DNA from: an uncultured Chromatiales bacterium
GTDB lineage: Bacteria; Bacteroidota; Ignavibacteria; SZUA-365
DNA: 64,000 nt
Direction of reading: 5' to 3'
NCBI GenBank assembly: GCA_964448285.1
Contig: CAYUWG010000008.1
Span: 18,645-82,644 of the forward strand
Shown: positions 1,828 to 45,044 of the stretch, one piece after another
How the letters are laid out: each line of letters opens with the position of its first letter
How positions within the stretch are numbered: the first letter of the stretch is position 1
Translations under genes and position numbers: made by a program
The notes under the pieces: model-generated
Told to the model about the DNA's origin: nothing
Database searches by the model: none
Seen by the model: the letters and a program-made list of their open reading frames with translations, nothing else

Positions 1828-4800
1828 ATGAAACAGTTTTTATGGTTTGTTTTCCTGTCTGTGAGTGTCGTTGTTTTCAATTCGAAAGCGCAGCTATCGG
1901 TAAGCGTCCAAATGCTGCCGTTCCCGTCGCCTTACATTTCGGATTGGAAGTCGAATCCGAACACCATTACGTTCGTCGTCACGAATCCAACGGGCATGAA
2001 TCAGGACGTTCGGTTCAATGCCTATATCGAAGGGTTGAAGCTCGGGAAGGTCGCGCAGACGAAACTCGATGCGAACATACCACCGGTCGTCATTCCGCCG
2101 GGGACGAGCATTCTCAATGCAATCGATGCGCGGTTGCTGGACGAAGCGGCCATACAGTACATCGGCTCAACGAAAGAAGAGACACAAAAAAGCGGGCGGT
2201 TGCCGGAGGACAATTTCAAGATTTGCGTCCAGCTCGTAACGTATGCTCTGCCGAACTCGCCGCTATCTCCGGATATGTGCTCGTCGTTCCAAATACTTTT
2301 GCTTCAACCTCCTTCATTGATCAACCCGAAAAATATCAGCGAACAGAAGTCGCTTCCAACGTTTCAGTGGAGCATCGTTCCGCAGGTTCAACTTGTGACG
2401 ATCAACTACGAACTCACGGTGATCGAACTCGAAGCCGGACAGACGAATCCTGGTATGGCGATGCAGACGAACATTCCTCTGTTTCAGCGCACAACGTCGA
2501 TGCCGCTATACGTTCTGCTGCAATCCGATCCGCAACTCGTGAAGGGAAGAAAGTACGTATGGCGCGTTCGTGCCTTCGACCAGCAAGGCAAATATTCTTT
2601 CGCAAACAACGGGTTCAGTGAAATATGGACGTTCACATACAATCCGGTGGTTCCGCCGGTGTTTACGCCTGAGGTTACCAAGAGCGAAATAAAAACGGTG
2701 AAGACGGACAAACCGGGCTACGGATTTGTCGATGTTCCGATGAAGGATGTACTCAAGTTCATCGTTCTGAACAGCACCGTGAAGGGAAAGTTGTTCTATA
2801 CCTTCGAGAAGTCGAAGCTCTTTGCCGAGCACAAGGTCGGCTCCAATGTCATCTTCCACTTCCAGCAAAAAGGCGCGCTCAATCATCTCCCGAATGTGGC
2901 GCTGCGTCTGGTGAAGAGATACAAGGTCATTCCGCAACTGAATTTCTATTCTTCGACAGTGACCGATACGAAGACCTGGAAGACCTACAGCATTTCACCG
3001 AAAACCGTCGCAACGACGACCGCCGACGCCGGTGGGAATTTTACGTTTAAATTTATCGAGGGTGACTCGACGGTGATCCTCAAGAATGCAAGCCTTCAAT
3101 CCGGCGGGGGAGAATTCGTGGATTACGTTGACAACGGTACGTTATACAAGTATTACACTGTTGAAGTGATCAATCCTTACTATTGCAGCTCCCAGCATGA
3201 AATTGCGTGCGAGCCGGGAGAAACCGTCGATGTAAGTCTTTCCTCACTCGTGCGCACGTACAACCTCGACGTTACGGTAAAGGATAAAGAGCGAGGAACG
3301 GAGGTCGGCAGCCTCTGCAACGTTTACATAGCGCGATTTGCGAAAAGTCTGGTTCCATTTCACGTCCCGTATGACGAGGGTGAACTCGAATCACCATCAG
3401 GATTGTATGGGATTGGACAGGTGATTCTTCCGGAAGACATCGAGAATCCGAAAAAGAAGTTTACCAATTCGAATCTCGGTTACGTCATCGGTATGCGCGG
3501 TACGGAAGACGCGCCGATAAAGGGACATGCGGTCTTCACACGGCTTGTCCGGAATTTGGGCGGCGTCGATCAATACGTCATTTCCGCAAGAACACCGGAA
3601 AAAAAATTGGATGGGAACTACAACGACCTGTATTACTTCGATAACAATAAGGGCGTTTATTTCATGAAGAAGACGCTCTATGATAAACCGGGCGACATCG
3701 ATCCGGGGTACGATTACAGCGGCGATGTCATTTACAATTCGGCCTATACGATTAAAACATTCAGCGTCGTGATCAAGATCGTACCGCGTCTGCCGCGAAT
3801 CTTCGGTCGGGTCAAACGAAGTGACAGCAAAAAGGACATCAAAGGAGCCGTGGTTCGCGTCGAACGCAATCCGGCGGCGGGAAATCAGAACGTGTATTAC
3901 GATGTCACGAATACCGAAGGCAAATTCGAAGTCCACGACATTCAGCCATCGGGTACGAGTTGGGCCTACAACATTCGTTTTCTTAAGTACGGCTTCAAGA
4001 CCTATCAAATGTCCGATCGCGCGATGGCGAAGGGCTACCAGACGAATCTCGGTACGATCGAGCTCGATCCGAAGCTCATCGTGACGAGAACGGTAATCGA
4101 TGAACATGCGAAGCTTCTTCCGGGCGTCGAAGGAATTCTTGGCGACGGTGCAAAACGTTATACAAATGAAAACGGAGTATTTGCAAGCCCTGCGATACCG
4201 GGATTTCAACATTTTCATTTGGAGAAGAAGCCGAAGTACGCAGACAAGGATTCCAATCTCGTGATTCAGGACAATCCGTTCGGTGAAGCATTCGGTGCAA
4301 TTCTCGCGGACAAGATCGTTATGTTCGAAGCGAAGCGACGGCTTGAAGTGCGTGTGCTCGACCAGACTTTCACGCCGATTCAGGGCGCCAAAGTCTTGCT
4401 GGAAGATCATTACATCACGCCGTCGTCGGATGGCAAAGGGGAGATTAACTATCAGGCGAAGTCGATGCCATACCAATTGACCACGAACGAAAAAGGTATC
4501 GTCTCCTTCGCGTATCTCTCGCCGTCTTCTCAAGCGAAAGTGAAGATCAGTGTACCGAACAGCGATTATGTTTCGACCAAGCGCACATACACCGATGTGC
4601 AGGAAGGCGGAACGTGGACGAAAAAAATCGTCATTCTTCAGGCCGGCGGTCGCGTGAAGGGAATCGTCTATATCGGCGAGAAGAAGGCCGCGAAATCGAA
4701 ACAGGGGCAATACCAATATCAGATTCCCCAGGAGATTCAGTTCTCGAATAATCTTCCATGCGCGAATGCTCGCGTCTGGATTGAAGGCTATCCGGAGTTG

Positions 4801-30723: not shown

Positions 30724-32394
30724 ATGTCAGACAATAAAATCATCTTCTCCATGATCGGCGTTGGCAAAGTCGTCCCGCCGAACCGATACATCCTCAAGGA
30801 CATCTACCTCTCGTTTTTCTACGGCGCGAAGATCGGCGTACTCGGTCTCAACGGCGCTGGGAAATCCACGCTGCTGAAGATCATCGCGGGGCTTGACCGC
30901 GACATCCTCGGCGAGATCACATCGGACAAAGGAATCACGTTCGGCTATCTGCCACAGGAGCCGGAGCTTGATCCAGGCAAGACCGTCCGCGAAGTGATCG
31001 AAGAGGGCGTGCAGGACGTCGTGAACGTCGTGAAGGAGTACGAAGCGGTGAACGCGGCCTTTGCAGAACCGGACGCGGACTTCGACGCACTGCTCGAGCG
31101 ACAAGCGAAACTGCAAGAACGGATCGACCATCTCGACGCATGGGATCTCGACAGCAAACTCGAAATGGCAGCCGATGCTTTGCGCTGCCCGTCGGGAGAA
31201 ACACCGGTGAATGTGCTTTCAGGCGGGGAGCGGCGTCGCGTCGCACTGTGCCGTCTGCTCTTGCAAAAGCCCGACGTGCTTCTCATAGACGAACCGACCA
31301 ACCATTTAGACGCGGAGTCCGTCGCGTGGTTAGAACAGCATCTTGCGAAGTACGAAGGCACCGTCATTGCCGTCACGCACGACCGCTACTTCCTCGACAA
31401 CGTCGCGGGATGGATTCTCGAACTCGACCGGGGCGAAAGGATTCCGTTCAAGGGCAACTACACTTCGTGGCTTGAACAGAAGCAGGAGCGCTTGCGCGTC
31501 GAAGAGAAGCAGGAGTCGAAACGGCAACGCATTCTCGCGCGCGAGTTGGAATGGGTGCGCATGAATCCCAAAGGCCGTCACGACAAGAGCAAAGCGCGCA
31601 TCGCGGCGTACGAAAAGCTTCTCACCGAAGAACAGGAGAAGCGCAACGAGGAGATGGAGATCTTCATTCCCGCAGGACCGCGACTCGGCGACGTCGTGAT
31701 CGAAGCGAAGGGCGTCTCGAAAGCGTTCGGGGACAGATTGCTGTTCGAGGGTTTGGACTTCTCGCTCCCACCCGGCGGCATCGTCGGCGTGATCGGTCCG
31801 AACGGCGCGGGTAAGACGACGCTCTTCCGCATGATCACGGGACAGGAACGTGCGGACGCGGGGACGTTCAAGATTGGCGAGACGGTGGCGCTCGGCTACA
31901 TCGACCAGAACAGACCGCTCGATGGGGAGAAGACGATCTATCAGGAAATCTCCGGCGGCGACGATCTCATTCGCGTGGGAAGCCGCGAGGTGAATGCGCG
32001 CAGCTACGTGGCGCGGTTCAACTTCAGCGGCAGCGACCAGCAGAAACAGGTGGGGCTGCTCTCCGGCGGCGAGCGCAACCGCGTCCATCTCGCGAAGATG
32101 TTGAAGGAGGGTCCGAACGTCCTCCTCCTCGACTAACCGACGAACGACCTCGACGTGAACACGCTCCGCGCGTTGGAAGAGGCGCTACTCAACTTCGCCG
32201 GATGCGCCGTGGTGATCTCGCACGACCGCTAGTTCCTCGACCGCATCGCGACGCACATACTCGCCTTCGAAGGCGACAGCCAGGTGCGCTGGTTCGACGG
32301 CAACTACGCGATGTATGAGAAAGACCGCAAGCAACGGTTGGGCATCGAAGCGGACAGGCCACACAGGATTAAGTACCGGGCGATGACGAGGTGA
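30724..32394 (+). pseudogene. ettA: ABC-F translational throttle EttA with two in-frame stop codons
   Basis: Two ABC cassettes are present (GLNGAGKST ... LSGGERRRVAL ... LLIDEPTNHLD; GPNGAGKTT ... [11 protein letters not shown]). The second Walker B reads LLLD-TAA-PTNDLD, with TAA at 32134-32136 where Glu is expected. HDR-TAG-FLDR has TAG at 32230-32232 where Trp is expected. The frame continues to the TGA at 32392-32394 with a canonical EttA C-terminus. Confidence 0.75.
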
Positions 32395-33393: not shown

Positions 33394-33521
33394 TAAGTAT
33401 CTAACGGCTATGCGTTTCAGCGGCGCCGACGATCACCTACCGGCGGAGGTACCCCAGGCACCTGCGGCGTCCGCTGGAAAAGCTTGTTAGATTTTGCGGC
33501 ACACCTATCCTGTATTTGCCA

Positions 33522-34148
33522 TCAAAGCAACCCTACAAAGAAAGGGGTGTAGGAAAATGAAAAGACGGATCGACCTTCTCGCATATCCCATAGAAACTCC
33601 TTTAGCATGTCCGCCCACTCTGCCCAACTACGGTATGTTCCATGGTCCTGAATCCACTCACCAAGATGTGCCTCTTCGATCATCTGGACCGGTAGACCGG
33701 CATCGATAGAGGAGGGGTGCTCCAATAGTGGGACATCCATTACAATGTCCCCGACCTCCTCGGATACCGGGTGCAGATGACACCACAGCACCCGCGCCTG
33801 ATTGTTCAGATCGAATAGCGATGTCACGAGTGGCACGGCAGCCAAAACCGGGATGCTGAAGTGGTACCCTACATAGGTCGCTCTAAAGAGGGAGTGATTG
33901 AACTTAACCTGGATGTGCTCATCTCCTGTATCCAACACCTTGGGGCGTCGGGCGAAAATCGCGACGACCTTCAGAGTAATGCCATCACCACCCGCTACTC
34001 CGACGCGACTTCCCTCGCGACTGGACCAGTAGTAGAAGGGTAACGCACGCATACCCGCGCCACCAAGTGCCCAAACAGCTCTCGGGACGAGGAAGTACTC
34101 CACCGTCCGCTCGTTCATAAAGCCGATCCGTCTTCGTTGGCCCATCAC
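33522..34148 (-). CDS. hypothetical protein (4th gene of kinase operon)
   Basis: 208-aa ORF in GC-rich DNA, co-oriented with the upstream genes. No motif recognised. The start is uncertain (possibly the ATG 30 nt downstream). Confidence 0.4.
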   Translation of the reverse strand: MMGQRRRIGFMNERTVEYFLVPRAVWALGGAGMRALPFYYWSSREGSRVGVAGGDGITLKVVAIFARRPKVLDTGDEHIQVKFNHSLFRATYVGYHFSIPVLAAVPLVTSLFDLNNQARVLWCHLHPVSEEVGDIVMDVPLLEHPSSIDAGLPVQMIEEAHLGEWIQDHGTYRSWAEWADMLKEFLWDMREGRSVFSFSYTPFFVGLL

Positions 34149-34254
34149 GCCTACATAAATCTAACGCTCAGCATCAGAGGCGGCGCCCACCGCCGTCCGC
34201 TGCATGCTGTTGTTAGCCGGAAGATGCCGGTCAGTGTTATCGGGAATCTTTGGT

Positions 34255-35544
34255 TCACTGCAGGCTGGTCCAACGCCGTCGTAGTACCGGCCCTCGTTGC
34301 TTGTCCAGCATGGCGAGCGCCGCGCGGTTCACGTCGAGAGAGTCGGTGAAGTCCCGGTTGGCGCCGAGCACGCCATTCGAGCCGAGAGTGTGGAGCAGGT
34401 CCTCGGCGTCGTTGAGCGTCTGCTCTTGGGCCTGCCACGCCTCGTCGTACTCTGCCGCATTCAGTGCTTGCGCCTGGCCGCGAAGAGCGTGCAAGTAGTG
34501 GCGGAAGGCCGCCTGCTCAGAGAAGCGTACGGAGGACGGCTGCACTCCGCTGAACAACGGGTCAACATAGCCGCCGTCGAATTCAGACGGTGGCTTCATG
34601 AGATCGAGCACCCCCTGCTCGTAGGCCACGTCGAGGAACGGGATCTTGTATTCCGAGAGGGCCCACGGGCAGTAGTACCACGTCGCTCGGCGCCGGATCT
34701 CCTCTTCATAATCCTTGTTGAACTTCTCGGGCGGGAACGACCGCACGTTCATCCACGTCCCGGAGCAGATGGCATTCGCTCCTGCGACGTGCGAGACGAG
34801 CATCTGATGATTGCAATAGCCGAGGATCACCTGCGCGCCCGCAAGGCGCAGCCCAGCCGTCAAATCAAGGACGTGCGCGAGCCAGATGGCGTCCTGAACG
34901 AGGTAGTCGCCGTTCGGATGTTCGCAGACGATGTAATACCCGTCTGCCCTCCAGCGGGTGACCGCTTCCAGTAGCGCGGTGACCTGCTCGCGGTTTCGGG
35001 CAGAGTCAGCCCCCAGAGCGAGCGTCGAGTACAGCGGTTTGGAATCGCCAGCCAGGTCGCGCGCGGTCGTGAGAAACGACTCATGATGAGCAAGCCAGGG
35101 ATCATCAACGGGATCGGCGAGCATCCCGGGCAGGATGATGGCCTCCGTGCCAAGGTCTTCGTTCAGCTTGACGATCTTGCGAACAAGAGACTCCATCTCG
35201 GGTCCTTTGAAGAAGGATCCCGATGCGAAGTCGGCCGGCCAGAACTCGTGGGAGCATAGTCGCTCATGATCGGCGTGCGGGACATAGAACTGAGGGTCAA
35301 GCAGCGCCTTCCCGCCTTCAACCTCGGCCACGTCCTCAGCCAAGCGCCGGAGTTGCTTGTCGTTCAGGTCGCGAGGGCTCAAAACAACTGTACCTCCACC
35401 CCATTCCGTGAGAAGGTGGCGGCAGTGGTCCATCATCCCGAATCCGAACTGAAGGTGAAGCTCCATCAATGTCCTCCTCCCACGAAGGCGCTTCGGCAGG
35501 GTCCACCGCCGCATGAACATGCCCGCGTGAGCGTACAGCTCCAT
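34255..35544 (-). CDS. hypothetical protein (429 aa), translationally coupled to the kinase gene
   Basis: Its ATG at 35544 lies 1 nt after the kinase TGA (TGAcATG). The gene is GC-rich. No motif recognised. Confidence 0.45.
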   Translation of the reverse strand: MELYAHAGMFMRRWTLPKRLRGRRTLMELHLQFGFGMMDHCRHLLTEWGGGTVVLSPRDLNDKQLRRLAEDVAEVEGGKALLDPQFYVPHADHERLCSHEFWPADFASGSFFKGPEMESLVRKIVKLNEDLGTEAIILPGMLADPVDDPWLAHHESFLTTARDLAGDSKPLYSTLALGADSARNREQVTALLEAVTRWRADGYYIVCEHPNGDYLVQDAIWLAHVLDLTAGLRLAGAQVILGYCNHQMLVSHVAGANAICSGTWMNVRSFPPEKFNKDYEEEIRRRATWYYCPWALSEYKIPFLDVAYEQGVLDLMKPPSEFDGGYVDPLFSGVQPSSVRFSEQAAFRHYLHALRGQAQALNAAEYDEAWQAQEQTLNDAEDLLHTLGSNGVLGANRDFTDSLDVNRAALAMLDKQRGPVLRRRWTSLQ

Positions 35545-35545
35545 G

Positions 35546-36409
35546 TCATTGGACTCCCTCCCGGTCGCAGAGGTCCTTGATCCAATCGTAAGCCTCGCGT
35601 GCCGTCTGGCACCTATGGACGGGGTTCGGTTGTGCCAAGGTTGCCACGAGGTCCGCGAAGTCGCGCGAGATGGGGGCTACTAAGCGCGGAAGTTGATTCT
35701 TGGCAACACGAGCCATGATCTCGAAACCGTCCCGAGCGCCGTCGCGGTGAGGATTGCGGCCGGTAGCGGCCTCATAGAGCGTCACGCCCAGCGCGAAGAG
35801 ATCGGCGCGGGCGTCGATCTCGGGCTTGTCATTGCGGCATTGCTCGGCGGGTGCGTAGCCGATTGTTCCCCAGCCTGCGGGAGCGGCGGTCGCCGTAATA
35901 GAGTCGAGGTCGAGGTGGCGTGCGAAACCGAAGTCGATGAGCCAGAATCCGCCTGCTGGATCGACGATGATGTTCGCGGGCTTCACGTCTCGATGAACGA
36001 TGTGGACGGCTTCCGCTGCGACCAAGGTCTCCGAGACGTGCAGCGCCAACCGTAGGAGTTCGGGACAGGCGAGCGGAGCAACACGGATGCGGCTGCTCAG
36101 GACCTCTCCCGGAATGCGCTGCTCACGGAACCAGACGATCGTTCCTGTATTCCCGGTGAGTTGCCCGTGCTGGAAGATGCGCGGCATCCGAGCAGCATGG
36201 ACCCTGGTAGCTGCCTCCAGCTCCCTCACCGTTCTTGCGGGATCCGTCCCCGGGTGCATGAGCTTGACGACAACCCCGCCGTCAGTCGCGTGCTGCGCAG
36301 CGAAGACCTGCTTCTGACCTCCCGCTGCAATCGCCTGGAGGTCGGTGAGGTCCGGGAACTGGTGTGCGAGCCAAACCGGATCTACCTGGGAGGGGATCGG
36401 CATAATCAT
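35546..36409 (-). CDS. Hanks-type serine/threonine protein kinase (kinase domain only)
   Basis: VVVKLMHP (VAIK-like Lys), catalytic loop HRDVKPANIIV, DFG (LIDFGFARHL) and APE-like GTIGYAPAEQ. There are no additional domains. Its start overlaps the upstream gene's stop as ATGA. Confidence 0.75.
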   Translation of the reverse strand: MIMPIPSQVDPVWLAHQFPDLTDLQAIAAGGQKQVFAAQHATDGGVVVKLMHPGTDPARTVRELEAATRVHAARMPRIFQHGQLTGNTGTIVWFREQRIPGEVLSSRIRVAPLACPELLRLALHVSETLVAAEAVHIVHRDVKPANIIVDPAGGFWLIDFGFARHLDLDSITATAAPAGWGTIGYAPAEQCRNDKPEIDARADLFALGVTLYEAATGRNPHRDGARDGFEIMARVAKNQLPRLVAPISRDFADLVATLAQPNPVHRCQTAREAYDWIKDLCDREGVQ

Positions 36410-37185
36410 CGGTTGCTGTGGTCCTTGGAGGCACGCCATGCAAGGTCATTGACAACCCACGAGGCGTACGAGCGTGGCAAGCGCGCGGTGGAAGCGCCCC
36501 ATTCCCTGATTCCATCTTGCCCGGGAGATAGTACTCCGATCCCGAGTCGTTGCGCGTCTCGGACCTGCTCCTCGGAAACGCGGGGCACGAGGACGTAGGA
36601 CTTCGATGCGAACCAGGTGTTCAGCCGTGCTTGGTTCAGCACGTCTGCCCACTTCCCGATTTTCGCCTCAACAGCGATAATCTTGGTCGCCGCGAAGGTG
36701 CGTTCGAAGGCGCACGGGAACCAGGCACGTCCGGCGGGTCGAACGAGCCCGGCACCGTGCAACCGTTCAATCGAGTATCGGGCGAAACGGGATCCGAAGC
36801 AGTCCTCAAGTTCTGAGTGGGCGGCTCTACGACGCTGGAAGACGTATTGCATGAGCCGCAGGTCGTCCGGTACGAGATCCATGCGCGATTCGTCCCAGTT
36901 GGCGGTGCGGGCGTCGCGCCACACCACGATGACGAGATCAGGGAACCCGGACTCTAGGCCGGGCTCGCGGAGCACCGTCACACGGCTATCCGGGGCATGC
37001 ACAAGCGGCATTGCGAAGATGAAACCATCCACGAGTTCCTGCTCTGGACCCCGCAAGGTGCGACGGAAGACGATGCCCTTCGGCGCCGAGTCGCGGTCAA
37101 CGATCGTTGGTCTCATGGTGGAGTGCACGTTGGTGATTCCCTCCCGTTCAATCACGCGTACTCGGTCCCTTCGTCCGGCCAACAA
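36406..37185 (-). CDS. hypothetical protein with possible PD-(D/E)xK-like signature (first gene of kinase operon)
   Basis: GFPDLVIVVW ... KIIAVEAKIGKW resembles the D / ExK strands of the restriction-endonuclease fold, with an unusually long spacer. The annotated start uses TTG; the first ATG is 23 codons downstream. Confidence 0.35.
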   Translation of the reverse strand: MLAGRRDRVRVIEREGITNVHSTMRPTIVDRDSAPKGIVFRRTLRGPEQELVDGFIFAMPLVHAPDSRVTVLREPGLESGFPDLVIVVWRDARTANWDESRMDLVPDDLRLMQYVFQRRRAAHSELEDCFGSRFARYSIERLHGAGLVRPAGRAWFPCAFERTFAATKIIAVEAKIGKWADVLNQARLNTWFASKSYVLVPRVSEEQVRDAQRLGIGVLSPGQDGIREWGASTARLPRSYASWVVNDLAWRASKDHSNR

Positions 37186-37600
37186 TAATTAGGCTGATCC
37201 GCATAAACCGCCGGTTTCTCATTTTCTTTCCGCATAAGACTCCATAGAATTATTTGTTCTTCGTCGCATCATGCCTCGACCGTTCGATGTATGTAATGTC
37301 GGGTTTGCAATTCATCATACATTTGCATCATCAGCTTGGGTCGTTTCGCTTGGGTCGTCATGTTGCTATTGTTGTCGCAAGATTACTTGGCACAACGATA
37401 GGAAATCAAAGCCTCAAAGTCAAGAAATGCGGGAAAATACTTTCTACTCCTTCATCTCGCACATACTTGCCTTCGAAGGAGACAGTCAGGTGCGCTGGTT
37501 CGACGGCAACTACGCGATGTACGAAAAGGACCGCAAGCAACGGTTGGGCATCGAAGCGGACAGGTCGCATCGGATCAAGCACAAGGCGATGATTGATAAC
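37181..37600 (+). repeat. composite repeat R1: 74-bp R-left element + IntI N-terminal remnant (30 codons, minus strand) + attI-like spacer with direct repeats + ettA 3' copy
   Basis: The minus strand reads [30 protein letters not shown]-stop and matches the start of the IntI-like ORF at 41880. The spacer carries TTGTCGCAAgattacTTGGCACAA. Then comes ettA-like coding ([42 protein letters not shown]) including GTTGGGC. Confidence 0.8.
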
Positions 37601-39003: not shown

Positions 39004-39216
39004 TCAGGCTGCAACCTGAATGTAGGACGAGTACGCCGATGGTTCAGGGGCGTCGTAACCCTCCATTCGCAAGCCTTCGAGATGAAATTCGATGGCTTCC
39101 TGAATATTTCGTTCGACTTCCTCTTTCGTTCTACCGGTAGAGCCACAACCCGGCACGTCCGGAGAAAATGCAGAGTAACCCGTACGTGTCTTTTCAACGA
39201 CGATAAGAAATTTTTT
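39004..39216 (-). CDS. HicB-like antitoxin (orphan)
   Basis: MKKFLIVVEKTRTGYSAFSPDVPGCGSTGRTKEEVERNIQEAIEFHLEGL is a UPF0150/HicB fold. No HicA partner is adjacent. Confidence 0.6.
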   Translation of the reverse strand, partial: KKFLIVVEKTRTGYSAFSPDVPGCGSTGRTKEEVERNIQEAIEFHLEGLRMEGYDAPEPSAYSSYIQVAA

Positions 39217-39278
39217 CATGGTTTCAATCCAGCTTGTTTGAGGATGTTCTGAGAACACGTCAGACCATTGTGATACGT

Positions 39279-39872
39279 TCAAGCTGCTTCAGCGTGCAGT
39301 CTCAAACCAAGAGCCCCAATCACCTTGAGGATGGTATCGAAATCAGGAGTACGTTCACCGGACAATGCCTTATAGAGACTTTCGCGTGAAAGACCAGCGT
39401 CACGCGCAACCTGTGCCATGCCACGTGCACGGGCAATATCTCCAAGCGCCTTTGCGATAAATGCGGCATCACCATTGGCTTCTTCCAGACATGCTTCTAA
39501 GTAAGCCGCCATTTCCTCAGGCGTTCGGAGATGTTCGGCGACATCATATCGAGTGGTTTTGGTTTTTCTCATCATGGGCTCCAACAAGTTTCGCGCGAGG
39601 CTACGAGCTGTCTTGATGTCGGTGGCTTGGGTACTTTTATCACCGCCTGCCAGCAGAATTACCATCTCGCGTCCGCGCTTTGTGAAATAAACCCGATAAC
39701 CGGGACCGTAATCGATCCGCAACTCGGAGACGCCATCACCAACTGGTTTGACATCTCCAGCATTTCCTGCCGCCAAGCGCTCAACTCTGGATAGGACACG
39801 CGCTCGTGCCTGAATGTCGCTCAGTCCATCGAGCCACTGCACGAAATTCTCTGTTTTGCGAATCTCAATCAC
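39279..39872 (-). CDS. in-frame fusion of RelE/Gp49-like addiction-module killer and HTH antidote
   Basis: Residues 1-100 (MIEIRKTENFVQWLDGL...GPGYRVYFTKRGREMVILLAGGDKSTQ) match the putative addiction-module killer family. Residues 105-197 (MMRKTKTTRYDVAEHLRTPEEMAAYLEA...GLSRESLYKAL) match the cognate antidote family. The junction is cccATGATGAga. Confidence 0.6.
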   Translation of the reverse strand: MIEIRKTENFVQWLDGLSDIQARARVLSRVERLAAGNAGDVKPVGDGVSELRIDYGPGYRVYFTKRGREMVILLAGGDKSTQATDIKTARSLARNLLEPMMRKTKTTRYDVAEHLRTPEEMAAYLEACLEEANGDAAFIAKALGDIARARGMAQVARDAGLSRESLYKALSGERTPDFDTILKVIGALGLRLHAEAA

Positions 39873-40247: not shown

Positions 40248-41351
40248 TCATCGTTTTTCACTTCCTGAATGTATTTCCAATAGACTCTTTCTATGAAGAA
40301 TACCAAAGCGTTGCCAAGCATATATATAGTCTCCAACAACTTCTATTCTAGCAATCTCATCAACTTGAATACCTGAGTCCGATTCTGTTCCAACTGGAAT
40401 CCAGCTTTTGCCGCTGTTTGTTGAAACAAATACTCCAATATTGGTGCCACAGAATATGTAAATTCCGAATGTCGCAATCGAGCTTACAAACGCAACCCTG
40501 TCGGATAATCCTATAGAACATCTAACCCAACTCTCTCCATTGTCGGAAGATATGTATAATCCATCATTGGTTCCAGCAAAAAGCACGTTTCCCAATGCAG
40601 CCAGTGAATTAATCATCCGGTTATATAGTCCGGAATTAACTCCAATCCAGTTTTTTCCACCATCCCTGGATAAGAATATCCCATTGTCCGCTCCGACAAA
40701 TATAAGATTTTCGCACCTAAGGACAGTGTTGACTCTACTGCTATACTCCTTCAATGTGCCAAATCCTTCGTCACCAGAAAAGAATACAACGCGTTTCTCG
40801 TCCCATCTTTTAATATCATCTTTTACCGCCATATACAATCTTCCTTCATATGTGACAGCATATATTTCATTATTGAATACATATATGTGCCGTATACCGC
40901 TTTTGGAGAGCACGCTATCTGGAGATATATTGGATGGAGTAGTTCGTTCTCGCTCTGAGGACATATTTACGCTGATCGAATAACTGATAGCTTGCCACCA
41001 GTTCCATCCCCTGTCTAAAGAGATAAACAGACCCTTCTGTGTTCCGCAAATCAAAATCGAATCTATCGTGATAAACCGTGTAATACCTACATTGGTAGGT
41101 AATTTTCCGCCGTATTTCCATTCTGAAAGAAAACCTGGTTGGCTTGGAATTGAGGGTGCGCCATTTTCATTCGCAGCGAATATTCCATGAGAATGAGCAA
41201 CCACCAACAACCTACCGGATTGCCGAATATCAACGATAGGCCCACCCCGTGCCATAGTCAACTGCCATTGCGAAATTGCTTTCGAATATGGTGCAGTGAA
41301 TACGATTGCGGCAATTATAACTGCTGGTTTTACTGCTAATCTACAATACAT
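40248..41351 (-). CDS. secreted BNR-repeat beta-propeller protein
   Basis: Signal peptide, then BNR motifs [32 protein letters not shown]. The gene is AT-rich (about 40 % GC) and its start overlaps the intI remnant's stop. Confidence 0.55.
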
Positions 41352-41880
41352 AGTGCGGTAAATTCTGATTTATTAATTCAATCGGGCTTCGTGCTGCCGA
41401 ATGCCCCCTGTTAAGTACATGGGTGTAAATCATCGTGGTTTTAATATCGCGGTGGCCTAAAAGCTCTTGGACAGTCCGAATGTCATAACCGCTTTCGAGC
41501 AAGTGTGTCGCGAACGAATGCCGGAACGTGTGACAGGTTACCCTCTTCGTCATGCCTGCTTTCATTGCGGCGATCCGCGCGCGAATGAGTTCGCACAGAT
41601 CACCGACCGCTAGTCCGATAACGTTGCGATACAAAAAGAGTAGAGCAGAGAGAGCTTGATTCTGTGTCGAAGCGCTTACTTTTTCCTCAACAGCAAGATG
41701 TGTCAGAAAAGCATTGATCTCAGGTTCCGACATCTCTTGCGGATGGCGCACATCATTGAAATGAACGTAGCGTTTCACCAAAAAGCAGTACACCTCCTCC
41801 GTACGATGGCTGTAATGTCGAACCTGCAATGCTTCATGCATTTGCATCATCAGCTTTGGTCGCTTCGCTTGGGTCGTCAT
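41341..41880 (-). pseudogene. intI: integron-type tyrosine recombinase (IntI-like) with a large internal deletion
   Basis: The N-terminal 100 aa ([15 protein letters not shown]...[31 protein letters not shown]) match the IntI core-binding domain. The ORF then joins directly to box II / C-terminus [43 protein letters not shown]. The catalytic Arg/Lys/His patch region is missing. Total length is 179 aa versus about 320 expected. Confidence 0.7.
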
Positions 41881-42085
41881 ATTGCTATTGTTGTCGCAAG
41901 ATTACTTGGCGCAACGATAGGGAATCAAAGAGTCAATGTCAAGAAATACCCGAAAAAACTTTCTTACTCACTTCATCTCGCACTTTCTCGCCTTCGAAGG
42001 CGACAGTCAGGTGCGCTGGTTCATCGGCAACTACGCGATGTATGAGAAAGACCGCAAGCAGCGTTTAGGCATCGAAGCGGACCGT
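41881..42085 (+). promoter_or_regulatory. attI-like region of R2: direct repeats TTGTCGCAA-6 nt-TTGGCGCAA, then ettA 3' arm to the GTT core
   Basis: It lies immediately upstream of, and divergent from, the IntI-like start. Two 9-bp direct repeats sit about 20 bp from the ATG. The ettA-like arm ([35 protein letters not shown]) ends shortly after GTTTAGG. Copies of the same layout occur in R1, R3 and R4. Confidence 0.5.
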
Positions 42086-42122
42086 CGGGTTCGCCCTGCT
42101 TTAAGTCGGCACGGCGCGGTCG

Positions 42123-42742
42123 CTATTCACGGGGCCACTTCCGGAGCGCTGCTTCAAAGCAGACATTGAGGAACTGCTCCACGATATCGATCACTGCAAC
42201 GACGAGCTTTGAATCAGCGAGTAGGGCGTCCACGACAACTGGACCCAAGGCTTTCCGCCGAATGAACGACTGGACCGCTCCTTTACCAGCGAAGTCAGCG
42301 AGTTGACCGCCGTTGTGAACAAGGCAGTTACGAACCTCAACAACACCCCGGACATCTTCGAGCAACTTTGACGGAAGGGCCAGGTCCATCCGGGCGACCT
42401 TCTGAGCATAGACAAGGAAGCGATCGAGCCACGAACCCCGCAGCTCGCGGAGGGACAGCTGTAGGTTCTCGGCATCACGAAGGCTCTGCGCGAAGTCTCT
42501 GAGATCTCGCTCAAGGAGACCAACTGTGACGACAATCACCGAGCTGTAGAGAATGCTGGGAAACGGCTCCTCGTAGAGGTAGGAATCCTCGTTCCCGAAG
42601 GCATCGTGCTTCCCAACCAAGCGCGTCGCTGATTCCGCGAGGAACTCCTCGACCGTGGTCAGATAGGCGCGAAGCTCATCAACGTGGATCAAGGCATCAA
42701 CGGAGCAGCCGAAGAACTGAAGACCGGGTCCGATGCTAGCCA
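42123..42742 (-). CDS. Abi_2 (AbiD/AbiF)-like HEPN-domain protein
   Basis: Rx4H motif EVRNCLVHNGG near the C-terminus in a predicted helical protein. The likely start is MASIGPGLQ at 42742. Confidence 0.4.
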
Positions 42743-43503
42743 TGTCCTCTCTTGTGTCGCCTAACGTTGTGCCGCTCAGCCGCGAGCGGCGGCCCATTGC
42801 TTCCGCACTCGCCCGGCGCCCGCCCGCCGCTCGTCTGCTGCAGCGGCGTGTTATGCTTCCTCTCGGCTTTCTCACCAGCTCTCTCGACGATCTTTAGGAT
42901 ATCGCTGGCGACAACGATTCTTTCGAACGCCGACAGAAAGTCCATGTCGACATCCCGGTGCGAACAGGGATTCTTGTAGTAGCCGAATGCGCCAGCGACG
43001 TATTGACACAGAGCCTCCCTTTCGGCCTTTGGAAGCGCCGGGTCGGTCAAGGGCCCGTTCTCAGGGTGGAAGGCCCTGCGGATTAGAGTCACGCCAATTT
43101 CGTCGGCACTGGACTTGGTCCACTTCCTGATCCCAGTCTCTACCGCCTTAAAGGCCTTGAGGACGGCACTTTCGTAATCGCCCGAATTCAACATGTGAAG
43201 GGAAACCTTGGCTATTCGAGGATGGATGTACATCTCCGGTACGAGTACGTAATCCCGAACAACGCTCCTAAACTCGCGCTCAAGGAACCTGAACCCGACC
43301 TTCGTTGGGTAAAAGGTTTCGTCGCCTTCGTCATCGTACCCACGTTGGTATTGACGTATATCTATGTGAGTCTCTGGACTAGCTTTGTACTTGACGCGCG
43401 AAAAGCGAACCGGCCGATATCCCCCGGCGTTCGCCTCGGCAATGACGTGCTGATACTCGATCTTTGCTTCGACTGCGCTCTTGTCCTTTGTCTTCCTCTT
43501 CAT
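42736..43503 (-). CDS. TIGR02391/Hypoth_Ymh-like HEPN-related protein
   Basis: The C-terminal 130 aa show AFKAVETGIRK ... LIRRAF ... YVAGAFGYYKNPCSHRD ... FLSAFERIVVASDILKIV. This matches the conserved FxAVE...RNPxAH-type blocks of that family. The likely start is ATG 43503 (MKRKTKDK). Confidence 0.45.
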   Translation of the reverse strand: MKRKTKDKSAVEAKIEYQHVIAEANAGGYRPVRFSRVKYKASPETHIDIRQYQRGYDDEGDETFYPTKVGFRFLEREFRSVVRDYVLVPEMYIHPRIAKVSLHMLNSGDYESAVLKAFKAVETGIRKWTKSSADEIGVTLIRRAFHPENGPLTDPALPKAEREALCQYVAGAFGYYKNPCSHRDVDMDFLSAFERIVVASDILKIVERAGEKAERKHNTPLQQTSGGRAPGECGSNGPPLAAERHNVRRHKRGHG

Positions 43504-43528
43504 CGCCCATTCTCTCCGCGGTAGGCCC

Positions 43529-43602
43529 AACAATAATTAGGCTGATCCGCATAAACCGCCGGTTTCTCGTTTTCTGTCCGCATAAGACTCCATAGAATTA
43601 TT
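43529..43602 (+). repeat. solo copy of 74-bp R-left element
   Basis: aacAATAATTaggctgatCCGCATAAaccgccggtttctcgttttctgtCCGCATAAgactccatagAATTATT has a 7-bp terminal inverted repeat and an internal direct repeat. It abuts the start of the Ymh-like gene. Confidence 0.7.
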
Positions 43603-43682: not shown

Positions 43683-44006
43683 TTAACGTGCATTTGCGCC
43701 CAACATCGTTTGAAATGGTGCGGAGGGAAGGAATCGAACCTTCCGCGTTCTCTCTTGGAAGGAATGTATTTGCTCACACAACCATCTCTCGCTTGGGTTG
43801 GAGTTTTTTTCCACCAGGCTCCGCAGGAACGCAGCTCCGCACCAAACACATGCCACGACAAAATGAAGTATGGCGTTTGAGTTTTTCATGATTACCTCCT
43901 TCGCAGTTTCAATGAAGCTGTTTACGGAATGGTAGATGTCCAACCCAAACGAGATTTCGATGTGTGCCTCAATACAAACCTCTTTACCCAAGCTCGTGTG
44001 ATTCAT
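43683..44006 (-). CDS. hypothetical small protein between two R-left copies
   Basis: 107-aa ORF with an internal hydrophobic segment (MKNSNAILHFVVACVWCGAAFL). Coding status is uncertain. Confidence 0.25.
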   Translation of the reverse strand: MNHTSLGKEVCIEAHIEISFGLDIYHSVNSFIETAKEVIMKNSNAILHFVVACVWCGAAFLRSLVEKNSNPSERWLCEQIHSFQERTRKVRFLPSAPFQTMLGANAR

Positions 44007-44026
44007 GGTTGCTGCACGCTAACAAT

Positions 44027-44384
44027 AATTAGGCTGATCCGCATAAACCGCCGGTTTCTCATTTTCAGTCCGCATAAGACTCCATAGAATTATTTGTTCT
44101 TCTTGGCATCATGCCTCGACCGTTCGATGTATGTAATGTCGGGTTTGCAATTCATCATACATTTGCATCATCAGCTTTGGTCGTTTCGTTTGGGTCGTCA
44201 TGTTGCTATTGTCGTCGCAAGATTACTTGGCGCAACGATAGGGAATCAAAGAGTCAATGTCAAGAAATACCCGAAAAAACTTTCTTACTCACTTCATCTC
44301 GCACATACTCGCCTTCGAAGGCGACAGTCAGGTGCGCTGGTTTGACGGCAACTACGCGATGTATGAGAAAGACCGCAAGCAACG
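44027..44384 (+). repeat. composite repeat R3 (R-left + IntI 5' remnant + attI-like spacer + ettA arm truncated exactly at the GTT core)
   Basis: Same layout as R1. The ettA-like sequence ...gaccgcaagcaacG stops at 44384 and is followed by unrelated sequence (actagtccgtg) where the other copies have GTTGGGC. Confidence 0.8.
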
Positions 44385-44429: not shown

Positions 44430-44792
44430 TCATTTATCCGGGATGCGTTCAGAGATGCGAATGCGGCCGGGTTGGACAACGATAAAGCAGCCCTCAATCA
44501 TCGTACGATGTGTATCAATAAATTCCACGACGGTTCGAACCATGGCTCTCCGGGCTTTGGCCGGAAATCGGATGAAAATGACGCCAGATGATTTGGCAAC
44601 GCTGGCAAAAACCAGTTGTCCAAAGTCTTTATCTTCAGTCAAAAGAATACGGGATTCCGCGAGGGTAAGCTCAATGATCGCGTCATCGGTCGCTCCAGGT
44701 CTTTCGTCGCAGACCGCAACGACATCGTGACCCATGGTACGTAATGCATGTACAAGGGAGAAATCGCAGTTCTCATCCGCAAGGAAACGCAT
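44430..44792 (-). CDS. DUF5615 PIN-like toxin-family protein
   Basis: [30 protein letters not shown]...[14 protein letters not shown] matches the [11 protein letters not shown]5615 consensus. Confidence 0.6.
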
Positions 44793-44807
44793 CCGTCTCG
44801 AAACAGT

Positions 44808-45044
44808 CTAATTCGAGGGTCCCAACAAAACAGTTTCCTCATGCGCCAGAGTATCAGCGGCATACATGGCAGCTGCACGGATATCCTCCGGAGTCAGACC
44901 GGGGTATGCGTCAAGGAGATCGTCCTCAGTGGCGCCTTCGCCGAGCTTGCGTAGGATAAGCTCCACTGTGATGCGCGTTCCCCGGATCACCGGTTTTCCC
45001 AGCATGATCTTGGGATTCATTTCGATTCTGCTTGAGATAGTCAT
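44808..45044 (-). CDS. DUF433 antitoxin-family protein
   Basis: GKPVIRGTRITVELILRKLGEGATEDDLLDAYPGLTPEDIRAAAMYAA matches the DUF433 consensus. It is paired with the DUF5615 gene 15 nt downstream. Confidence 0.6.
   Translation of the reverse strand: MTISSRIEMNPKIMLGKPVIRGTRITVELILRKLGEGATEDDLLDAYPGLTPEDIRAAAMYAADTLAHEETVLLGPSN

Follow-up and report, generated by a model that had tools for sequence, protein, structure and literature searches.

Two minus-strand genes lie next to each other at positions 42,123 to 43,503 of a 64,000-nt stretch of DNA from an uncultured Chromatiales bacterium (contig CAYUWG010000008.1, positions 18,645 to 82,644, assembly GCA_964448285.1). We refer to this whole stretch as the window. 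A preceding interpretation, made without database searches and here called the sequence-only reading, had described the two genes as a tandem pair encoding HEPN-type proteins without a cognate partner. Here, we examine the gene models, the families of the two proteins, and the integron-like surroundings in which the genes are found.

Gene models and the attC hairpin

Both open reading frames (ORFs) are present where the sequence-only reading had placed them, and every sequence block it had quoted (FKAVE, RRAF, YKNPCSHRD, FLSAFERIVVASDILKIV, and EVRNCLVHNGG) was found in their translations. Gene 1 (42736 to 43503) runs on the minus strand from ATG 43503 to TAG 42736, encodes 255 amino acids, and is preceded by the ribosome-binding site (RBS) GGAGAG, located 8 nt 5' of the start codon. 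Gene 2 (42123 to 42743), on the same strand, runs from ATG 42743 to TAG 42123, encodes 206 amino acids, and has AGAGAGGA as its RBS. With this start, the two genes overlap by 8 nt (ATGGCTAG, 42743 to 42736), not by 7 nt as first reported. The window sequence from 42031 to 43558 recurs with 100% identity in a Logan assembly made independently (L026), which breaks at the flanking repeats; the sequence, including the unusual gene 1 tail described below, is therefore reproducible.

The 98 nt between the genes (42856 to 42759, minus strand) read GCATAAC...GTTAGGC and form one long imperfect hairpin, in which the R'' box (GCATAAC, 42856 to 42850) pairs with the R' box (GTTAGGC, 42765 to 42759). This is the attC site of the gene 1 cassette. 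Folded as single-stranded DNA (ssDNA), it reached -33 to -34 kcal/mol (z -2.7), and 2 of 200 shuffled sequences folded equally well. A scan of the entire window with a relaxed motif combined with a hairpin search returned just two attC-like sites, this one and a second at 33399 to 33492.

The same GCATAAC box follows gene 1 homologs in four of the loci fetched for comparison (L001, L003, L005, and L029), where the homologous genes end with AAGGCATAAC or AAGGCATAGC. The R'' box itself contains the in-frame stop (TAA or TAG) in L001, L003, and L005, and in L029 the stop is positioned 9 nt earlier. The end of gene 1 in the window reads AAGCATAAC and is shorter by one base than in these homologs. 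With one base fewer at R'', gene 1 misses the stop, translates the attC for 38 amino acids, and enters gene 2 by 8 nt. These last 38 residues are predicted to be disordered, with predicted local distance difference test (pLDDT) values below 50. The 8-nt overlap is thus a local accident and no sign of an operon.

The start codon of gene 2 at 42743 is situated 15 nt past R', and gene 2 relatives in L028, L027, L017, and L016 start 15 to 25 nt past a GTTAG[GA]C-type box. A second candidate start, ATG 42797, would yield a protein of 224 amino acids, as in the public NCBI-style annotation P0121, and was initially favored because of an N-terminal match to protein P0122. It was rejected, considering that the additional codons lie within the L'/R' region of the attC and that the relatives start just past R'. 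The conservation between this upstream stretch and P0122 is best explained as conserved attC DNA. We prefer the start at 42743, also chosen in the sequence-only reading, since ATG 42797 falls within the attC.

Protein families of gene 1 and gene 2

Residues 93 to 205 of the gene 1 product (42889 to 43227) matched the Pfam family Hypoth_Ymh (PF09509) with 68 bits at a cutoff of 25, and the protein also exceeded the cutoff of TIGR02391 (50.8 bits versus 39.45), bearing out its earlier description as Ymh/TIGR02391-like. This C-terminal domain has the four-helix HEPN fold, and the Ymh family profile matched all of the 27 gene 1 homologs that were aligned. In total, more than 500 homologs were detected, which are 66 to 87% identical, comprise 207 to 217 amino acids, and end near residue 215. 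Metagenome-assembled genomes carrying them are labeled Dissulfurispiraceae, Yonathbacteria, Verrucomicrobiae, Desulfobacteraceae, and Bacteroidales, and such identity across very different phyla fits mobile cassettes. Conservation among the aligned homologs spans the full length of gene 1 and includes the N-terminal ~90 residues; this extension is therefore a real domain, comprising the ~90 to 92 amino acids that precede the Ymh match, in place of the 130 proposed earlier. The HEPN motif reads K177-N-P-C-S-H182 (KNPCSH, 42975 to 42958), with K in 26 of the 27 homologs and R solely in P0008, and with an invariant H182 followed by an invariant R183. A canonical Rx4-6H motif is thus missing from gene 1, K being found in place of R. 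PADLOC returned weak matches of the gene 1 family to Aga_HEPN (25/27 homologs) and PD-Lambda-3_B (22/27).

The N-terminal beta-rich domain of gene 1 (residues ~12 to 88, 43240 to 43470) is probably PC4-like, with a predicted ssDNA-binding fold. In the structural model, a helix comes after a curved antiparallel beta-sheet, and the fold can be superposed on PC4 homologs. The top Foldseek hit of this domain was 5a4n_A (prob 1.0), and the PC4-like protein of phage T5 (4bg7) was also listed. Matches to the Pfam PC4 family (PF02229) below the threshold (E of 0.1 or lower) were found in 8 of the 27 homologs, and the gene 1 family profile matched none of the PDB sequences. Within the literature that could be searched, nothing was found that joins HEPN and PC4 in one architecture, and the fusion looks undescribed.

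Gene 2 matched no Pfam or NCBIfam family. It belongs to an unnamed family, for which a full HMMER scan returned 441 cluster representatives, mostly of 200 to 225 amino acids. Among 59 gene 2 relatives, the only invariant columns were R156 and H161 (224-amino-acid numbering, as for the following residues) of the motif RNCLVH (42332 to 42315), and N157, E96, G121, and F209 were conserved in at least 90%. The PADLOC model RTasHEPN, describing reverse transcriptase (RT)-associated HEPN proteins, was matched by 55 of the 59 relatives with a best E value of 8e-12, and weak Pfam matches were found to HEPN_RiboL-PSP (6/59) and Apea (2/59). The Abi_2 family (PF07751) matched neither gene 2 (E of 1 or lower) nor any of the 59 relatives (E of 0.1 or lower). 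Hence, the HEPN assignment made in the sequence-only reading was supported for both proteins, through the Ymh profiles for gene 1 and through the RNxxxH motif and the RTasHEPN profile for gene 2, and what fell away was the Abi_2-like identity of gene 2. The gene 2 family profile had no match among PDB sequences, and hhalign detected no similarity between the two families. No RT gene was found near gene 2 in the window or near its relatives in any examined locus. It was also correct that a cognate partner is missing, with neither an antitoxin nor an MNT protein accompanying the two genes.

Relatives of both genes were also encountered on predicted viral contigs. A gene 1 relative with 56% identity is encoded on an IMG/VR contig (L024, match 4001 to 4618), and a distant gene 2 relative (26%) is located beside HNH-like and large terminase-sized ORFs (L025, match 4001 to 4405). 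Both families may thus also be phage-borne. In two further loci, ORFs just 3' of gene 2 relatives contain RNxxxH strings (FRNATFH in L008, 5652 to 6107, and IRNQIQH in L009, 5965 to 6603). Pfam and profile searches gave these ORFs no support, and we did not count them as HEPN proteins; they might represent additional HEPN-like genes that have diverged, or the motifs may be fortuitous.

Related loci and the surrounding island

Loci carrying relatives of the two genes show members of both families as integron cassettes. L028 is an array of small ORFs on the same strand with canonical GCCTAAC...GTTAGGC hairpins of 60 to 78 nt at 987, 1698, 2152, 2630, and 3484, which bracket the gene 2 relative. 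In L006, an attC is located directly 3' of the gene 2 relative. L029 displays the canonical integron layout, with an intact integrase gene on the minus strand (330 amino acids), an attI whose end is GTTAGGC, and, beyond it, cassettes on the plus strand; among these is a gene 1 relative, followed by GCATAAC...GTTATGC. The R' boxes of attC sites precede gene 1 relatives in L003, L029, and L017. Gene 1, an ORF with an attC that has both R'' and R' and with a homolog in the integrase-bearing array of L029, is thereby an integron cassette. Gene 2 starts past an R' box as cassette genes do, and an attC downstream is seen in its relatives in L028 and L006, but not in the window. In canonical arrays, the cassette has a single ORF.

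The sequence-only reading had proposed looking for the pair in other genomes. All loci fetched were searched with hidden Markov models of the two families; they included 13 distinct gene 2 family loci with usable flanks and 5 Ymh loci. A Ymh gene was found in only 1 of the 13 gene 2 family loci, and a gene 2 relative in none of the 5 Ymh loci. The single case, L017, has diverged representatives of the two families no more than 500 nt apart, in reversed order and with an 83-amino-acid ORF and attC R' boxes between them. Other neighbors were unrelated and mostly unannotated, and neither a conserved partner gene nor a small partner ORF recurred across the examined loci. No two-gene HEPN system, be it HEPN-MNT or a HEPN/HEPN operon with a conserved partner, was recognized. 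We therefore conclude that the two families share a habitat, the integron arrays, without a functional link. A second adjacency of HEPN genes, again in separate cassettes, was noted in L003 (3164 to 4642) and in L004 from another metagenome, where an Abi_C (HEPN-clan) gene, an attC, the PC4-like/Ymh gene, and BrnT/BrnA-like genes follow one another in this order.

In the window, genes 1 and 2 belong to a ~14-kb island (32.4 to 46.2 kb) that lies beyond the 3' end of an ettA-like ABC-F gene (30724 to 32394, plus strand). The island contains six copies of the ettA-like 3' end, four copies of the intI 5' end, three copies of a repeat termed D5, one internally deleted integrase gene, and several toxin-antitoxin (TA) cassettes; all of its genes, intI remnants included, are on the minus strand. 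The ettA-like 3'-end copies, comprising the last ~100 to 135 nt of the gene, are located near 32260, 37480, 39950, 42001, 44290, and 45153. The one at 42001 to 42112 (plus strand; repeat families D3/D4, six-copy alignment) adjoins the stop codon of gene 2. These copies were also considered as hairpins, but none of them folds as one. The intI 5' end, together with its promoter, recurs at 37311, 41830, 44151, and 46084, each time in divergent orientation beside an ettA 3'-end copy. The arrangement is reminiscent of an integron unit that has the 3' end of its target gene as a direct repeat on either side and that underwent tandem amplification and later decay. The internally deleted integrase (41341 to 41880, minus strand, 179 amino acids) retains Phage_int_SAM_4 and the C-terminal end of Phage_integrase (Pfam) and aligns to residues 4 to 105 and 260 to 326 of the intact integrase of L029. 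A functional integron platform, that is, an intact intI with an adjacent attI, was not found in the window.

A promoter-like site of a truncated intI copy, TTGACA-17-TATCGT (44235 to 44263, minus strand), was detected by consensus scan and is aimed at D5, gene 1, and gene 2; an identical site is located at 41942 to 41914. By its position, the former site could possibly drive the gene 1 and gene 2 cassettes. Directly upstream of gene 1, the 76-nt repeat D5 (43527 to 43602, minus strand) contains two direct repeats TTATGCGGA and ends in ...ATTATTG/TTGGGC (the slash marks the junction). Its three copies (37179 to 37254, 43527 to 43602, and 44019 to 44094) are 96 to 97% identical and end in GCCTAATTATTG/TT, and in all three the homology stops exactly at G/TT, including the copy before gene 1. 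Two of them are separated by exactly 132 nt from the start of a truncated intI, and the third, directly 5' of gene 1, stands by itself. D5 was rejected as an attC, having no hairpin (z -0.9 to +1.3). As judged from these junctions, it may be attI-like and supply the G of the G/TT junction.

Several features of the surroundings do not involve genes 1 and 2 directly. The second attC-like hairpin (33399 to 33492, ATCTAAC...GTTAGAT, 94 nt, -22.6 kcal/mol) is located shortly downstream of a block of minus-strand genes (33522 to 37185), among them one with a protein kinase domain, where the GC content is higher. The 416-nt segment between D5 copies contains a perfect tRNA 3'-end-like fragment (43716 to 43743, minus strand; T-arm GAAGGTTCGATTCCTTC, acceptor strand, and CCA), where neither ARAGORN nor Rfam called a tRNA, and a 68-amino-acid ORF with a strong RBS and an ATG near 43889. 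A single 197-amino-acid ORF (39279 to 39872, minus strand) combines a Gp49/HigB-type toxin (residues 13 to 88) with an HI1420-type antidote helix-turn-helix domain (residues 106 to 194). These domains normally belong to two genes, and the ORF may represent a TA cassette whose genes became fused or are joined by read-through. Other TA genes nearby are HicB-like (39004 to 39282) and DUF5615/DUF433 (44430 to 45044). Two conserved positions of the ettA-like gene are occupied by in-frame stop codons, TAA (32134 to 32136) in place of the Walker-B Glu (LLLD-stop-PTN) and TAG (32230 to 32232) in place of a Trp (SHDR-stop-FLDR), and the gene is either a pseudogene or affected by sequence errors. An altered genetic code is disfavored because of long ORFs elsewhere in the window.

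Interpretation and comparison with known systems

We consider it likely that genes 1 and 2 are two independent single-ORF integron cassettes located side by side in a decayed chromosomal integron-like array, each probably providing a self-contained defense or toxin RNase. Cassette 1 would supply one polypeptide composed of a PC4-like N-terminal domain and a Ymh-type HEPN domain, and cassette 2 a solo HEPN protein whose relatives include the HEPN partners of defense RTs. Most likely, each protein would be an RNase that is inactive until triggered and acts as a phage defense, abortive infection, or toxin cassette, probably as a homodimer under cis regulation by the N-terminal part of the protein. 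The candidate sensor of gene 1 is its PC4-like domain, which might recognize nucleic acid. Cassette shuffling would have brought the two genes together.

Several observations weigh against this interpretation. The canonical catalytic R of HEPN nucleases is replaced by K in nearly all gene 1 homologs, which renders the nuclease activity of gene 1 uncertain. The PC4 assignment is burdened by a best Pfam score of 18.9 bits for PF02229, below the gathering score of 25, by a nonsignificant hhalign comparison of the gene 1 family with human PC4, and by the moderate confidence of the N-terminal domain model. The AlphaFold2 (AF2) model of gene 2 is all-helical but was built from a 2-sequence alignment and has a pLDDT of 44; with a model this poor, the HEPN assignment rests on the motif and the profile matches. 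In the window, gene 2 is not followed by an attC, no hairpin being found in 42030 to 42125. The local integrase copies are all truncated (179 amino acids plus stubs of ~30 codons), the array layout is noncanonical, and the recurrence of the pair in L017, even if single, is above naive chance.

The truncation of four out of four intI copies, the in-frame stops of the flanking ettA-like gene, the disordered tail acquired by gene 1 with the loss of its stop, and the missing attC of gene 2 would equally be expected if both genes were inert, nonfunctional cargo decaying in a dead integron. Considering that the ORFs are otherwise intact and keep all invariant family residues, KNxxxH and RNxxxH included, and that both genes have a good RBS and a promoter-like site upstream, we regard such a state as improbable. 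It is very unlikely that both HEPN proteins constitute one module, either a heteromeric nuclease or a toxin/regulator pair, translationally coupled via the 8-nt overlap, along the lines of the tandem unit or mutual regulation contemplated in the sequence-only reading. The genes are adjacent, co-oriented, and overlapping, the two families also meet in L017, and HEPN active sites arise at dimer interfaces (bioRxiv 10.64898/2026.02.22.705581). Yet the overlap is due solely to the lost stop of gene 1, an attC separates the genes here, L017 has the reversed order with R' boxes and an ORF in between, and the partner is missing from the 12 other gene 2 family loci and the 5 Ymh loci, so that each family is found solo elsewhere; moreover, the two family profiles show no similarity.

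The least likely of the explanations considered is that one or both genes are addiction-type toxins and not phage sensors; they would stabilize the array and be restrained by a so far unnoticed antitoxin, such as a small RNA of the kind known from AbiF-type systems. The island does carry TA cassettes (HicB-like, Gp49/HI1420, and DUF5615/DUF433), a class more abundant than any other in chromosomal integrons (bioRxiv 10.1101/2024.07.02.601686). Against this stand the single ORF per cassette in canonical arrays, the lack of a small conserved partner ORF across loci, and the failure to detect tandem repeats as candidates for an RNA antitoxin near either gene or any Rfam match across 36.5 to 47 kb.

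Two independent cassettes thus remain our preferred explanation. Going further, the PC4-like/Ymh protein might be an unrecognized, widely spread single-protein immune sensor, moving across phyla as an integron cassette, in which ssDNA, such as phage replication intermediates, would activate an atypical K-N-x-x-x-H HEPN nuclease; at present we regard this extension as doubtful. Cooperation of the protein with the neighboring RT-associated-type HEPN protein is less likely.

The apparent oddity of a partner-less HEPN tandem is, in our interpretation, ordinary integron biology with neighboring cassettes. Furthermore, the sequence-only reading stated that HEPN RNases usually need an antitoxin or sensor, but solo HEPN defense proteins are established, HEPN-only integron cassettes among them (bioRxiv 10.1101/2024.07.02.601686; bioRxiv 10.64898/2026.02.22.705581), and newness is confined to the uncharacterized families. 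As a by-product, the analysis yields two candidate single-gene defense or toxin cassette families, neither of them fully covered by a curated family: the PC4-like/Ymh fusion, with its high identity in distant phyla, and the gene 2 family of solo proteins akin to RT-associated HEPN proteins. The two families, small and portable, fit the current view of integron cassettes as a reservoir of streamlined antiphage genes.

Compared with known systems, gene 2 resembles Abi_2 proteins (AbiD/AbiF, PF07751) in its low-confidence all-helical prediction and RNxxxH motif and differs from them in lacking a profile match. It is closer to the UG22-type RT-associated HEPN proteins (Mestre et al. 2022, PMC9226505), most gene 2 relatives matching the PADLOC RTasHEPN model, whose link to the UG22 partners we infer; unlike these, gene 2 stands alone as a cassette. 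DARNA/PD-T7-3, a single-protein ssDNA-activated HEPN tRNA nuclease (bioRxiv 10.64898/2026.02.22.705581), likewise combines a HEPN RNase domain and an ssDNA-capable domain in one polypeptide and offers, by analogy only, a mechanism for a partner-less HEPN protein. Its architecture is unrelated to that of gene 1, with an N-terminal HEPN domain, a helical ssDNA-binding domain of 300 amino acids, and assembly into dodecamers, and the PADLOC PD-T7-3 model matched neither gene 1 nor gene 2 at E values up to 1. The Ymh family, of which the C-terminal domain of gene 1 is a member, typically occurs solo or N-terminally fused, with described fusions to paraMORC, AbiJ-NTD1/2, and AbiTii (Anantharaman et al. 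2013, PMC3710099). The PC4-like domain is not listed among these fusions, and gene 1 further deviates by the K for R in its motif. The closest parallel to the two genes as cassettes is provided by Esos, Taranis, and AbiV, single-gene HEPN cassettes of Vibrio integrons that defend against phage (Darracq et al., bioRxiv 10.1101/2024.07.02.601686). The cassettes described here belong to other families, Ymh and RT-associated HEPN-like, and come from an uncultured non-Vibrio host with a decayed integron; with Esos, Taranis/Abi_C, and AbiV, they share the design of a small, single, partner-less HEPN-type ORF in an integron cassette that is attC-bounded, in the case of gene 2 as judged from its relatives.

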